Source of the DNA: a virus
Virus record (IMG/VR): IMGVR_UViG_3300006188_000003
Strand: one strand, 5' to 3'
Length of the DNA stretch: 56,778 bases
Part shown: positions 1,008 through 56,778 of the stretch, one piece after another
Numbering within the stretch: the first letter of the stretch is position 1
How the letters are laid out: the number at the start of each line of letters is the position of its first letter
Translations under genes and position numbers: made by a program
The notes under the pieces: generated by a model
Database searches by the model: none
What the model was told of the DNA's origin: nothing
What the model saw: the letters and a program-made list of their open reading frames with translations, nothing else

Positions 1008-1511
1008 CTATTTATTGTCGTCATCCCCAGAAGAACCGTTTCTTCCAGCTGTTAGCAGCGCCAGATCGGCCATTATTTTCTCAGAGTCTACTGATAAAGT
1101 TTCTATCCCCGCCAATGCCTCGTTTAAATTAGTTTCGATCTTGGCCTGGCTCTCCTGCCGGGCCATATTTTTTTCGATGTTTTTTAAGATTTCGGTCTGT
1201 GCAGCAAAAGCCTTTGCTTGATCGCGGTAAGCCTCTGCCATCAATGTGAGGACCTTCTTCAACTCACTATTTCCGACTCCCTCATCATCAGTATCATTTT
1301 GTTCTATTCCCTCGTACGCAGCTAACAAATCCTTTCGACTAATTCCAAGGATTGCGCCCAACTCCTGCAACCTCGGCCACTTTGGGATTCTCCTTCCATC
1401 CTCATAAAATGCATAGGCTCTTTGAGTTATACCCAATTTGTCGCCCACGTCTTGTTGAGACATTTTCTTTTCTAATCGGGCCCTTTTCAATATTTCAGAA
1501 ACTTGATTCAA
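1008..1511 (-). CDS. XRE-family HTH repressor (CI-like), without an S24 peptidase domain
   Basis: HTH_3 motif LKRARLEKKMSQQDVGDKLGITQRAYAFYEDGRRIP with a coiled-coil C-terminus. The only start that keeps helix 1 is TTG at 1511. Divergent from the early operon. Confidence 0.8.
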   Translation of the reverse strand: MNQVSEILKRARLEKKMSQQDVGDKLGITQRAYAFYEDGRRIPKWPRLQELGAILGISRKDLLAAYEGIEQNDTDDEGVGNSELKKVLTLMAEAYRDQAKAFAAQTEILKNIEKNMARQESQAKIETNLNEALAGIETLSVDSEKIMADLALLTAGRNGSSGDDDNK

Positions 1512-2994: not shown

Positions 2995-3381
2995 AAAATC
3001 TTTTGATATAAAACATATCGCAAGGTTACTCGTGACGGTCTTTTGTGGCGTGGCTTTCCTGATGGTCATCAACCTTATGACCGGTTGCCGGAAGGAGCTG
3101 CCCGTAGAGTCGCCGGCAACGCCGACGCCGAAGCAGAAATGCAGCTGCCGGCCGATGCCCCAGGTAGATACTACGCATGCATCCACGTTAGACCCAGGAA
3201 CCTGATTAGCGTCCTTGGACGCTTCTGGGGTTGATTCGCACCCTCTCACCTGGCGGCTGGAGATGGGAAGCGGTCCCCACCTCTTTAATCTGTCCGGGCA
3301 GTCTCCCGAAGAGTTCTTTACAATCTTCCGTCTTTGACGGAAAAATCTCAAACAGGGCCGGCTCCATACTGCCGGCCAAAT

Positions 3382-3449
3382 GGGGAAGTAGTTCAGCGGT
3401 AGAACAGGCTCGCAACGCCTAGTCGGTGGTTCGAATCCATCCTTCTCCA
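3382..3449 (+). tRNA. tRNA-like gene (68 nt) with canonical acceptor, D and T arms but only a 3-4 bp anticodon stem
   Basis: GGGGAAG-TA-GTTC-AGCGGTA-GAAC-A-GGC-TCGCAAC-GCC-TAGTC-GGTGG-TTCGAAT-CCATC-CTTCTCC-A. The 5' half closely resembles bacterial tRNA-Gly. The loop would read GCA with C at position 33. CCA is not encoded. Confidence 0.5.
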
Positions 3450-3582
3450 CGCTCTTAGGCGGGATATAAGCAGACCAGCGCAGCGGTGGCGAGGCTGGCA
3501 TACCGCGGAAGACCACCCCAGCCGATGGCAGGCTGACGATCGGGAAAGACCGGGTGACTCTTAGGAATACCAGCTAAGTGAA

Positions 3583-3650
3583 AGGGATGCGCGCTATCAG
3601 ACCCGCGCGGGCAGGGTAGCAACGAAAAGGGTTCGACTCCCGGCATCCCT
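3583..3650 (+). ncRNA. 68-nt stem-closed element carrying a T-loop-like motif
   Basis: AGGGATGC 3583-3590 pairs with GCATCCCT 3643-3650. Internally there is GGG-TTCGACT-CCC and a GCTA..TAGC arm enclosing CCC-GCGC-GGG. It does not fold as a cloverleaf. Confidence 0.3.
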
Positions 3651-3691
3651 CAAGTAGAATTATTCTACAGTTTAGGGTTTAGGGGTTATTG

Positions 3692-3720
3692 GCGGGATGT
3701 TTCTACGTCCCGCACCTTTT
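3692..3720 (+). terminator. Terminator-like hairpin inside the non-coding locus
   Basis: GCGGGA (3692-3697) pairs with TCCCGC (3708-3713) across a 10-nt loop, followed by ACCTTTT. Confidence 0.4.
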
Positions 3721-3743
3721 AATAGTTCTTTGAATCAACATAA

Positions 3744-3870
3744 TTGCGGGTGGCGGAATAAGACGCTAACCAGGTGGGCTAACAGGTAACAGACGACAAA
3801 GCGCGACAAGTCCGGAAACTAACCACCATGCAGGTATGAGACAATCCTGCCCCGCAAACATATTTTTTTT
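3744..3870 (+). ncRNA. Candidate structured small RNA closed by a long-range stem and ending in a T-run
   Basis: TTGCGGG 3744-3750 pairs with CCCGCAA 3851-3857, nested GGTGG 3750-3754 pairs with CCACC 3824-3828, and GCTAAC(C)AGGT occurs twice. T8 at 3863-3870. No ORF. Confidence 0.25.
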
Positions 3871-4471: not shown

Positions 4472-5434
4472 ATGAGCACAAATGTAATGAATTCGCAAAA
4501 CAGTATCATGCAGGTTCTCAAAGACACGGCGCCGGCTGCCATTGCAGAGCTGGACTTCGTGCGTGACCGGTATGTCCAGAACTATAACGCCTGCCACCGG
4601 GAAAAGGTGGGCGAGTTGATGTATCACCGCAACGTGATCCACTTTAAGCAGATCCTCGCCGGCAGCGACAAGCTGCGGGCATGCGATCCTTTCAGCCTAT
4701 ACGCTGTATTTGCAACAGCTGCTGTCAACGGGTACAGCCTGGATCCGCAGGACGACGAAGTATACATTGTTCCAAGAGACGGTAAGGCGGTCCTCCAGCG
4801 TCAGGCAGGAGCCTATGTCCGCAAGCTGAAACGCTCCGGGCAGATCCTCGATGCCAACAAGCCCGTCCTGGTCTATCAGGGGGATACCTACCAGGTGCAG
4901 AACGGCAGGGTCATTCTCCATGTCGAGAACTTCCAGAGTGACATAATTGTCGCCGGTTATATCAGGTTCGAGCTGGACAGCACCGGTCGCGACTTATATG
5001 CTACCTATCGCAGGTCTGACTGGGAGAGCTGGCGCGAGAAGTCGCAGATGAAGGATGGCCCGAATTGGAACCACCGGGGCGCTGGCCAACCGCAGCCCGA
5101 GTTCCTGAAGACAAAGATCACGTTACATGCATGTAAGGCGAAGCATTGGGCTATCGGCACTACTCCTGCCAATGTAGAACAGTTTACCGACATAGAGGTG
5201 GATGTCGACGACAGCCAACCGGTGGATCGCGCACATGCCTTACAGGCCCACCCCATCGGGCAGGCGACGCGGCCTTTCCAGACGGCCCAACAGATTCCGA
5301 GCACTTCTAATCCACAGGTAGGTCCTTCGCCAGGAGGAGTAGCTGCAGGAGCATCTGCCAACGGCTTCGCACAAGAATCCCAGAGCAGCGGCAAAGGCTC
5401 CGTATCATTCGAAGACCCTGAAGTATCATTTTAA
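4472..5434 (+). CDS. recT: RecT-family single-strand annealing recombinase
   Basis: SLYAVFATAAVNGYSLDPQDDEVYIVPRDGKAVLQRQAGAYVRKLKRSGQI fits the RecT core pattern. A PD-(D/E)XK exonuclease lies downstream. Confidence 0.7.
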   Translation: MSTNVMNSQNSIMQVLKDTAPAAIAELDFVRDRYVQNYNACHREKVGELMYHRNVIHFKQILAGSDKLRACDPFSLYAVFATAAVNGYSLDPQDDEVYIVPRDGKAVLQRQAGAYVRKLKRSGQILDANKPVLVYQGDTYQVQNGRVILHVENFQSDIIVAGYIRFELDSTGRDLYATYRRSDWESWREKSQMKDGPNWNHRGAGQPQPEFLKTKITLHACKAKHWAIGTTPANVEQFTDIEVDVDDSQPVDRAHALQAHPIGQATRPFQTAQQIPSTSNPQVGPSPGGVAAGASANGFAQESQSSGKGSVSFEDPEVSF

Positions 5435-55364: not shown

Positions 55365-56657
55365 CTATTTTTCGGCAGCTGGAAGGAAGGAAGGCGAATT
55401 CTCGATAATCCTCTTTTTATACACTTCCTTCACAACTTTGGCATATTTCTCTGTCATGTACTTACTGCCATGACCATACAGTTCTCGCAGCTCATCCAGC
55501 TCCATGCCGGCAAGGATCTTGTCGTCCCCACCAGTACGCTTCATTGCATACTGGTGTTTGTCGATGCCGAGCTTCTCCTTTATCAAACTCTTCCATAGCT
55601 TCGTTACCGTATCACGTTTTATACGGGTCGGGGAGGGGCTAAAGTATTCGGGCCTTGCGGCTCCAATCACGCCACCAGTAGAAGACCCACCTCCTCTATT
55701 ACCCTTGCCGGAAACAAAGGGGCTCCCGAAAACATAATAGTCCTGGGAATATTCCTCCAGGTTCATTTCACGCAGGAAAGGGAGTAAGTGGTTGTTTATT
55801 GGAATGTATCGTATCTTTTTGACCTTCGAGTTTTCTTCTTCCAGGATGGGAATGATTTTGATCTCTGGTTTAGTGAGGTCGATATCGCGGATCTTTAAGG
55901 AAAGGATCTCTTTGGGGCGAATGCCGGTGTGATAGAGTACCATCAGGTATACGAAAAATTTGTAGTGATTAATAACGAGAAATTCGTACAGGTCCTTCTT
56001 TTCCTTTTCGGTCAGTGGGACATACTTTTCCGTCTCAGCCACCGGCAAGGGCTTTATCTTATGCGCTGGGTTATACTCCAGAACTTCCCATTCGATGAGA
56101 TACTCGCATAGGGCATGTAGGTATGTGAGATTTTTATTATGAGCAGCATTTGTCCAGACCTGCCTGCCCTTCGGAATATTTTTCGAGGTAAGACAGCAAT
56201 CCAGCAGGAGCTTGACATGCTGCCGCCGAAAGTCTTTAGCTGTAACATCATGAAGAGACAAGGACCGGGCGGCTCTCTTCAAATCATTCACCGTCGTTCT
56301 GTAAGCTCTGATGGTGGCCGAGGATGCCTTATAGCTCTTAAGGGCAAATTCCAGCGCGCCAATGAAAGACAGCTTCTCCAGAGCGGTGACGGCAGATGAA
56401 GGTGAAGGGTCATCCGTGAGCCCCCAGGGATTCCAGCCGGTTTCAAGTTTCTTGAGCCAGGTTTTGGCAAGGGCCAAGCCTGCCTTTCGCCTCTCGTCTG
56501 TGTCATGATAGTAGTTAATGCCGGAACGAAATTGTTTGGAGATGGTCTGATTTGTGACCGGGTTAGTGATGTCAAAATAGACAAACCAGGGCTTTGTGAC
56601 GTCGCCTTTATAGTCACAAAGCCTGGGTTCCGTGTACGTTACTGCTGGCATATTCAT
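55365..56657 (-). CDS. int: Tyrosine recombinase / phage integrase (Bacteroidota type with an N-terminal arm-binding region)
   Basis: HTGIRPKEILSLKIRDIDL (catalytic Arg), HQYAMKRTGG (HxxR) and GHGSKYMTEKY (Tyr). Adjacent to the att core. Confidence 0.9.
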   Translation of the reverse strand: MNMPAVTYTEPRLCDYKGDVTKPWFVYFDITNPVTNQTISKQFRSGINYYHDTDERRKAGLALAKTWLKKLETGWNPWGLTDDPSPSSAVTALEKLSFIGALEFALKSYKASSATIRAYRTTVNDLKRAARSLSLHDVTAKDFRRQHVKLLLDCCLTSKNIPKGRQVWTNAAHNKNLTYLHALCEYLIEWEVLEYNPAHKIKPLPVAETEKYVPLTEKEKKDLYEFLVINHYKFFVYLMVLYHTGIRPKEILSLKIRDIDLTKPEIKIIPILEEENSKVKKIRYIPINNHLLPFLREMNLEEYSQDYYVFGSPFVSGKGNRGGGSSTGGVIGAARPEYFSPSPTRIKRDTVTKLWKSLIKEKLGIDKHQYAMKRTGGDDKILAGMELDELRELYGHGSKYMTEKYAKVVKEVYKKRIIENSPSFLPAAEK

Positions 56658-56751: not shown

Positions 56752-56778
56752 GCGGAGAGAGAGGGATTCGAACCCCCG
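56752..56778 (-). tRNA. 3' end of host tRNA gene (Ser-like acceptor); integrase-proximal att core; gene body continues beyond the window
   Basis: The minus strand reads GGGGG-TTCGAAT-CCCTC then TCTCTCC-G. This is a canonical T-loop with an acceptor strand complementary to GGAGAGA and discriminator G, as in bacterial tRNA-Ser. The anticodon lies outside the window, so the isotype is inference. Confidence 0.65.

Follow-up and report, generated by a model that had tools for sequence, protein, structure and literature searches.

The window, by which we mean the whole stretch of 56,778 nucleotides analysed here, is one prophage of a soil-type Bacteroidota host with a genome of 7.9 Mb. An exact 27-nt direct repeat at its two ends (positions 1-27 and 56752-56778) equals the 3' end of a tRNA-Ser(tga) gene, and these repeats are the attachment sites of the prophage. 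An early operon on the plus strand reaches genes for RecT, an exonuclease, a ParB-like nuclease and an SNF2 helicase. Homologues of RecT at 88% identity were found on ten contigs and the nearest named homologue belongs to a Puia sp. MAG; a search with the RecT protein among 400 genomes of the family returned no relative. The closest relative is a metagenome contig, L046, whose RecT is 89% identical and which aligns with the window from 2996 to approximately 3402, a span that includes a hairpin placed just before the element under study. This element, a short tRNA-like gene, sits in an ORF-poor stretch with small membrane and lipoprotein genes upstream and the recombination module downstream, and the small ORFs beside it matched nothing from Pfam or PHROGs. 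The features of the locus are as follows.

1008-1511, minus strand: cI-like HTH repressor.
3238-3330, plus strand: non-coding block that shares about 90% identity with L046, a higher conservation than that of the ORFs on either side.
3356-3377, plus strand: GC-rich 7-bp hairpin, ending 4 nt before the 5' end of the element and conserved in L046.
3382-3449, plus strand: tRNA-like RNA gene of 68 nt (ARAGORN, Rfam, fold), with C74 at 3450 and CCA not encoded.
3382-3388, plus strand: 5' strand of the acceptor stem, starting G1 G2 G3 G4 and pairing with 3442-3448 at seven of seven positions including G3:U70.
3391-3405, plus strand: D arm with a 4-bp stem and a 7-nt loop containing G18 and G19 (sequence, fold).
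3406-3420, plus strand: shortened anticodon arm, 4 bp including A3406-T3420 and a 7-nt loop (fold, gaps in the Rfam alignment, alignments with tRNAs at the same site).
Between 3420 and 3425, plus strand: variable region of 4 nt (fold).
3425-3441, plus strand: T arm with a 5-bp stem and a canonical 7-nt loop (sequence, fold), the same stem being present in L026, L095, L050 and L073.
3442-3449, plus strand: 3' strand of the acceptor stem with U70 (3442-3448) and discriminator A73 (sequence, fold).
3692-3722, plus strand: intrinsic-terminator-like hairpin with a T run, 240 nt downstream of the element.
4472-5434, plus strand: RecT, in the early operon.
55365-56657, minus strand: integrase.

A sequence-only reading of this locus had described a 68-nt tRNA-like gene with a 7-bp acceptor stem and canonical D and T arms, and this description is borne out by ARAGORN, Rfam and the predicted fold. 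ARAGORN, which that reading had proposed as a check, made a single tRNA call in the whole window (3382-3450, plus strand), labelled it tRNA-Cys(gca) and placed its anticodon at position 31, as against positions 33-38 in all 46 other tRNAs of the genome. Against the Rfam tRNA model (RF00005) the element scored 50.8 bits, with a gathering threshold of 29 and an E value of 5.2e-8 for the window; with a score above the curated threshold and acceptor, D and T arms all present, it belongs to this structural family. The cloverleaf was both the minimum-energy and the centroid structure in RNAfold (-21.3 kcal/mol, 47% of the ensemble), with a modest z of -1.7 relative to shuffled sequences. The bases of the tertiary contacts, as read from the sequence, are complete (U8, A14, G15/C48, G18, G19, G46, U54, U55, C56 and A58), the base at -1 is U, and the base at 74 is C, as it is in 44 of the 46 host tRNA genes.

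The exception to this regularity is the anticodon arm. Its stem had been counted as 3 bp, or 4 bp with A3406-T3420, and the fold agrees with this count, giving three G-C pairs plus the A-T pair, while the spacing from D stem to T stem is 19 nt instead of the 23 nt of a standard tRNA. The Rfam alignment deletes columns in the anticodon stem, two on the 5' strand and one on the 3' strand. The arm measures 15 nt and has no free position 26, whereas a standard arm has 17 nt plus position 26. With a 15-nt arm, 3-4 bp and a C at structural position 33, the element departs from a canonical decoding tRNA, and the earlier suspicion that it may not decode gains weight because the arm is physically too short, which makes decoding unlikely.

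The sequence just upstream of the element is structured, folding of 3300-3385 giving z = -3.3, and hairpins analogous to 3356-3377 precede the related elements in L024/L072 and L041. This hairpin is a candidate for the protective 3' end of an upstream RNA following cleavage by RNase P, or for part of a 5' leader. The hairpin at 3692-3722 is likely to be the end of the transcript carrying the element. A weak, possible promoter-like site lies 36 nt upstream and, given this site and the terminator, the element could form a small separate transcript. No Rfam family matches the block at 3238-3330, and a promoter motif, AGTTCTTT, occurred four times with two expected, which is not significant.

Several other structured modules were observed in this part of the window, all on the plus strand. 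At 3583-3650 lies a second 68-nt stem-closed module with an 8-bp closing stem devoid of G:U, in which one long hairpin stands in for both the anticodon arm and the D arm, and a T-like arm of 3 bp carries a loop equal to the T loop of host tmRNA and host tRNA-Ala. In a third stem-closed module (3744-3858), the acceptor-like stem measures 7 bp and the T-like hairpin is enlarged; this module resembles the manA RNA motif weakly (20.2 bits, E 0.03), below the gathering score of 55. Positions 3669-3722 contain a 15-nt G-rich tandem motif with four copies in the genome (C16, two copies; C21), a terminator-like hairpin follows three of the four, and most genomes of the genus have matches of 26-29 nt at 93-96% identity. 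At 2383-2449 the conserved boxes of a hammerhead-like core are present, with one closing stem that is weak; the hammerhead invoked by the sequence-only reading found little backing in Rfam, where the type III model gave just 17.7 bits (gathering 48.5, E 4).

The acceptor stem of the element consists of G1-C72, G2-C71, G3:U70, G4-C69, A5-U68, A6-U67 and G7-C66, followed by A73. Its first six pairs and A73 are identical in the host tRNA-Ala(GGC), and the element carries the alanine identity set of G3:U70, A73 and G2:C71. The G3:U70 pair is necessary and sufficient for recognition by AlaRS, an enzyme that charges minihelices and tmRNA and ignores the anticodon; the host has one AlaRS, an ordinary one. 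By these established identity rules, the element is predicted to be a substrate of AlaRS and not a glycine or cysteine substrate. The near identity of its 5' half to tRNA-Gly, which had been remarked upon earlier, proved to be a superficial likeness, with 2:71, 3:70 and base 73 forming the alanine set. A glycine identity was rejected on the grounds that host tRNA-Gly has C2:G71, G3:C70 and U73 where the element has G2:C71, G3:U70 and A73, and that an NCC anticodon is missing. A cysteine identity was likewise rejected, as GCA appears only in the folded register and base 73 is A; the three host genes called tRNA-Cys by ARAGORN have U73 (two genes) or G73 (one gene) and bodies unrelated to the element. 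Few armless elements in phages are alanine-type (7 of 84 among the matches listed), and the G3:U70 pair may have been carried over from a tRNA-Ala ancestor without being used.

Comparison with relatives of the prophage places the element in an evolutionary context. At the homologous site upstream of RecT, L046 encodes a normal 73-nt tRNA(CAT) with a 5-bp anticodon stem. The two genes have a common 5' half with D stems that differ by a compensatory double change, and the loop of the element aligns position for position with the L046 loop, the sole differences being anticodon bases 35-36. In the L046 register the loop reads C32, U33, a CGC (alanine) anticodon, A37 and A38. Relative to the tRNAs at this site, the element is without about 3 nt on the 5' strand of the anticodon stem and 1 nt on the 3' strand. 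On this alignment, the remaining stem re-pairs one position out of register after the loss of about 4 nt, and this re-pairing is the reason for the 'GCA' reported by ARAGORN and for 'C33'. The claim that position 33 is C is accordingly true of the folded register only; the register aligned to the L046 tRNA gives U33, A37 and CGC.

Other relatives also carry tRNA genes here. In L050/L051 and L075, tRNA(CAT) genes lie 1.1-1.4 kb upstream of RecT and have a mismatch at 1:72. Across L046:384-456, L050:2830-2902 and L075:1743-1815 this mismatch is G/A or C/A, and the L075 gene has three G-C pairs at the base of its anticodon stem; the 1:72 mismatch and these three G-C pairs are initiator-like features. 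A Puia prophage, recovered as one sequence under four designations (L024, L030, L040 and L072) and with a RecT that is 71% identical, has at the same site a 66-nt alanine-type mini-element that scores as a bare tmRNA tRNA-like domain. From the tRNA(CAT) genes in three relatives and the alanine-type mini-element in the Puia prophage, it follows that the site upstream of RecT is one that holds interchangeable tRNA or tRNA-like cargo. The alignments show the element to be a derivative of, or replacement for, an ordinary tRNA at this site. The presence of a tRNA in some relatives and of a mimic in others provides a natural comparison that could be exploited in experiments.

More distant homologues were detected by pattern scans. 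Both a Dysgonomonas prophage (L026, identical to L042) and L095 contain sequences that match the element in T stem, variable region and 3' end, and a related element is present in a Sphingobacterium alimentarium prophage (L025, identical to L041). Actinobacterial homologues were set aside, the context of L043 being ordinary metabolism and not phage. Compared with the window, the homologues have compensatory substitutions both in pair 5:68 and within the D stem, where the element differs by a compensatory double change from L026 just as it does from L046, and all T-stem pairs left free by the pattern are formed. The anticodon arms are diverse: 13 nt without stable pairing in L026, a 3-bp stem with a 4-nt loop in L025, and, in L095, a stem extended to 8 bp that carries a 9-nt loop. 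Judged by their predicted structures, none of these three arms could decode. The L042 element lies directly downstream of a cI-like repressor, a setting like that in the window, and the flanking DNA of the homologues is no longer alignable with the window. The body is therefore conserved across phages of three Bacteroidota orders with the anticodon arm free to vary. Comparison across related prophages had been suggested as a means of establishing whether the short stem is conserved; the short stem itself has not emerged as conserved, and the searches returned no orthologue that has this short arm. DNA searches of the phage and E. coli collections were negative, nothing but T-arm-sized matches came from 40 relatives, and 400 genomes of the class yielded no hit to the 69-nt element at E <= 1e-6.

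Two of these prophages have other RNA features near their short elements. On the minus strand of L041 (6050-6950), there is a cluster comprising the alanine-type short tRNA-like gene, at least one further tRNA-like gene, a tRNA-Lys called by ARAGORN and a two-piece permuted tmRNA (RF04321, 61.6 bits). On the plus strand of L042 (5967-7053), a reverse transcriptase is immediately preceded by an RT-17 RNA motif, which scores 43.4 bits (above gathering) and is situated 1.7 kb downstream of the short tRNA-like gene of that phage.

We define here a wider class of phage tRNA look-alikes by a paired 7-bp acceptor, a D arm and a T arm in combination with an anticodon arm that is shortened or absent. 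The window element falls within this class, at the least-truncated end of the range. A scan of IMG/VR for alanine-type members returned 39 distinct, well-paired short elements with G3:U70 (57-70 nt), and in 13 of the 39, measuring 57-61 nt, the anticodon arm is wholly absent. An acceptor-blind pattern, in which the D arm, a short linker and the T loop were fixed and the acceptor was unspecified, detected at least 100 distinct candidates of 57-63 nt without an anticodon arm (loci L183-L298). Among the matches listed, 84 of 100 had at least six of seven acceptor pairs and at least four of five T pairs, compared with a chance rate for acceptor pairing of about 1.3% by our own calculation from random pairing odds; the G3:U70 pair was confined to the seven well-paired armless elements mentioned above. 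The acceptors returned by an earlier scan, aimed at arms 4 nt short, were likewise non-alanine, and a scan meant to free pair 3:70 returned mostly tmRNA ends and initiator tRNAs. Since most of the armless or 4-nt-shortened elements listed are non-alanine, truncation of the anticodon arm is a general phage phenomenon and not an alanine-specific one. All 99 armless copies given to ARAGORN went uncalled, ten armless elements scored 41-56 bits with the Rfam tRNA model, and about a quarter of the armless copies had a normal tRNA within 500 nt. General surveys mention tRNA-like candidates in phages (PMC10690425), and our literature search found no paper on tRNA look-alikes of phages in which the anticodon arm is physically shortened or deleted; the class is common in phages and barely described. 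As tRNA finders mislabel the window gene as tRNA-Cys or overlook its armless cousins, phage tRNA inventories and the codon-supplementation arguments built on them are skewed.

What, then, is the element? The reading that we prefer, with a probability of about 0.55, is that of a non-decoding tRNA-body RNA that would be excised by RNase P and RNase Z and be chargeable with alanine; we infer the processing, the charging and the lack of decoding from its anatomy. Both nucleases recognise the acceptor/T helix and elbow, and for bacterial RNase P the acceptor/T helix alone is sufficient; in the element this helix and the elbow are intact, with U at -1 and C74 after A73. The element would be transcribed either alongside the early rightward operon of this temperate Bacteroidota phage or as part of it, cut by RNase P at 3381/3382 and by an RNase Z-type 3' nuclease after A73/C74, and completed by addition of CCA. 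The product would be a stable L-shaped RNA of 68+3 nt, which AlaRS could load with alanine. Having an arm that is two helical layers short, such an RNA would be too short to bridge the decoding and peptidyl-transferase centres and would stay outside translation, while selection would retain the acceptor, D and T arms that make up the tRNA body. One observation is at odds with this reading: RNase P does not rely on the D arm, yet the D arm has been kept.

Three roles had been put forward for the element, namely a punctuation mark for mRNA processing, a decoy for anticodon nucleases or tRNA-targeting defence systems, and a degenerating phage tRNA. Of these, processing punctuation is the candidate that fits the anatomy best, because 4 nt separate the upstream hairpin from the predicted site of RNase P cleavage; the element would act as a tRNA-shaped processing signal that sets the end of the upstream message at hairpin 3356-3377 and releases a small stable RNA. 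The idea is weakened in that the terminator and promoter-like site allow for a small separate transcript. A processing signal is nevertheless predicted to be the most likely role, with a tRNA-body decoy second. A decoy aimed at anticodon-loop nucleases drew no specific support, the anticodon arm being the sole part that is unconserved among homologues. A duplex scan identified no convincing antisense partner RNA in the window, and k-mer matches were at chance level in nine loci.

Decay is the alternative that deserves most attention. The element might be a pseudogene, a phage tRNA-Ala with a CGC-type loop that has lost about 4 nt of its anticodon stem and that is functionless and not yet erased. 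The ordinary tRNAs at the same site, a loop that by homology is the canonical Ala CGC loop shifted out of register, the absence of a common short arm in any orthologue found, the unconstrained appearance of homologue anticodon arms and the mismatches present in some short tRNA-like copies elsewhere are all consistent with such decay. A relic of this kind is nonetheless hard to reconcile with the perfect pairing of all other stems and the intact tertiary-contact bases, with the clean 4-bp hairpin that the shortened arm still forms, with compensatory changes that have kept the acceptor, D and T arms across Bacteroidota orders while flanking DNA became unalignable, and with the recurrence of the same architecture in very many phages. 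We therefore regard functionless decay as unlikely, though a serious competitor; degeneration describes the probable origin of the element from an ordinary tRNA well but not the maintenance of its body beside a varying arm. The missing nucleotides could also reflect a small indel introduced by sequencing or assembly in a GC-rich repeat of a normal tRNA gene, as there is a single assembly of the locus and the region is GC-rich with short GC repeats. Such an artefact is very improbable, as four nucleotides on two strands would need to be missing and independent assemblies of homologues agree on non-canonical arms (L025/L041, L026/L042 and L030/L040).

Other alternatives grant the element a function but a different one. 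It may be an unusual decoder, an alanine-charged tRNA that reads GCG in the CGC register or Cys codons in the GCA register and that escapes nucleases directed at the anticodon stem. The 7-nt loop and A37 are retained, a short stem in a phage tRNA-Thr resists P2-OLD with decoding restored (PMC12445682), and in bacteria and protists tRNAs whose anticodon stem has 4 bp are able to decode (PMC13092985). These precedents, however, unpair one terminal pair of a 17-nt arm, whereas the element has nucleotides missing, an arm of 15 nt and no free position 26; it also has C at position 33 in the structural register, and homologue arms are wholly unable to decode. There is also no demand in codon usage, GCG being rarer in the phage than in the host and an excess of TGC resting on 117 Cys codons, and codon supplementation was rejected because the codons used by the phage call for neither a decoder of Ala GCG nor one of Cys. 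We consider an unusual decoder improbable. We hold it distinctly improbable that the element is a dedicated carrier handing alanine to an acceptor other than the ribosome, or that it competes with tmRNA by binding SmpB or EF-Tu and disturbing ribosome rescue (the host tmRNA tag is GNTQYAMAA). The alanine identity set, the scoring of related mini-elements in L072 and L031 as tmRNA tRNA-like domains and the proximity of the Sphingobacterium homologue to a permuted tmRNA would suit such a function, but no gene of the aaPGS or FemAB families was found anywhere in the genome, the prophage has no SmpB or AlaRS gene (each is a single host gene located elsewhere), the full D stem of the element is absent from tmRNA and most armless phage tRNA-likes are not alanine-type among the matches listed.

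A broader proposal concerns the class as a whole: tRNA bodies whose anticodon arm has been shortened, replaced or deleted may have been selected as trans-acting tRNA mimics. We advance this tentatively, as a possibility that on balance we doubt. Such mimics could be competitive decoys or product mimics for defence nucleases or toxins that grip the elbow and acceptor and cleave or modify the anticodon arm. If this were true, the alanine-type members would additionally be chargeable and the arm would be a module varying in an arms race and not debris. Returning to the non-decoding tRNA-body RNA that we favour, if these RNAs are processed and stable then phages own a compact, reusable tRNA-shaped module, which could serve in the formation of RNA 3' ends or engage tRNA-binding host factors without touching translation. 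The alanine-type members offer a simple way to test whether, beyond tmRNA, an RNA that is charged but does not decode has a role.

Comparison with known systems indicates where the element is familiar and where it differs. The tRNA-like domain of tmRNA (RF00023) is likewise an alanine-type acceptor/T-arm module without a decoding anticodon, and the sister elements in L072 and L031 score as this bare domain. In tmRNA, the D stem is replaced by a loop that binds SmpB and the tRNA-like domain is joined to an mRNA-like domain; the element differs in having a full D stem and a small anticodon-like hairpin and in lacking an mRNA-like domain or pseudoknots. Identification as a tmRNA tRNA-like domain was rejected on account of the full D stem, the absence of a coding domain and the absence of a tmRNA match among those listed by Rfam for the window. 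At the 3' end of MALAT1, mascRNA is a eukaryotic tRNA-like processing signal with a reduced anticodon arm that is not aminoacylated; it follows directly after a stabilising structure, and cleavage by RNase P yields a protected upstream 3' end and a small stable RNA. The window element is similarly a small tRNA look-alike with a reduced anticodon arm and an adjacent upstream structure, differing in that its cleavage is predicted and that the upstream structure is a simple hairpin.

Shortened anticodon stems have precedents among decoding tRNAs. Phage tRNA-Thr variants resistant to P2-OLD have one base pair unpaired in a full-length arm and are proven to decode (PMC12445682); like the element they are phage-encoded tRNAs with a shortened anticodon stem, there an adaptation in tRNA conflict, and unlike them the element has nucleotides deleted. 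Bacteria widely possess tRNAs with 4-bp anticodon stems in which the terminal pairs of a 17-nt arm are 'unpinned' (PMC13092985), and these match the element in having four anticodon-stem pairs whereas its arm is physically shorter. Because both studies concern unpaired terminal pairs in full-length arms, neither covers the window element. With bacterial tRNA-Ala and the alanine minihelix, the element shares G3:U70, A73, G1-C72, G2-C71 and G4-C69 together with canonical D and T arms and, by homology, a loop equal to the Ala CGC loop; it is set apart from tRNA-Ala by an arm of 15 instead of 17 nt, by the loss of a free position 26 and by a folded triplet that reads GCA after a C.
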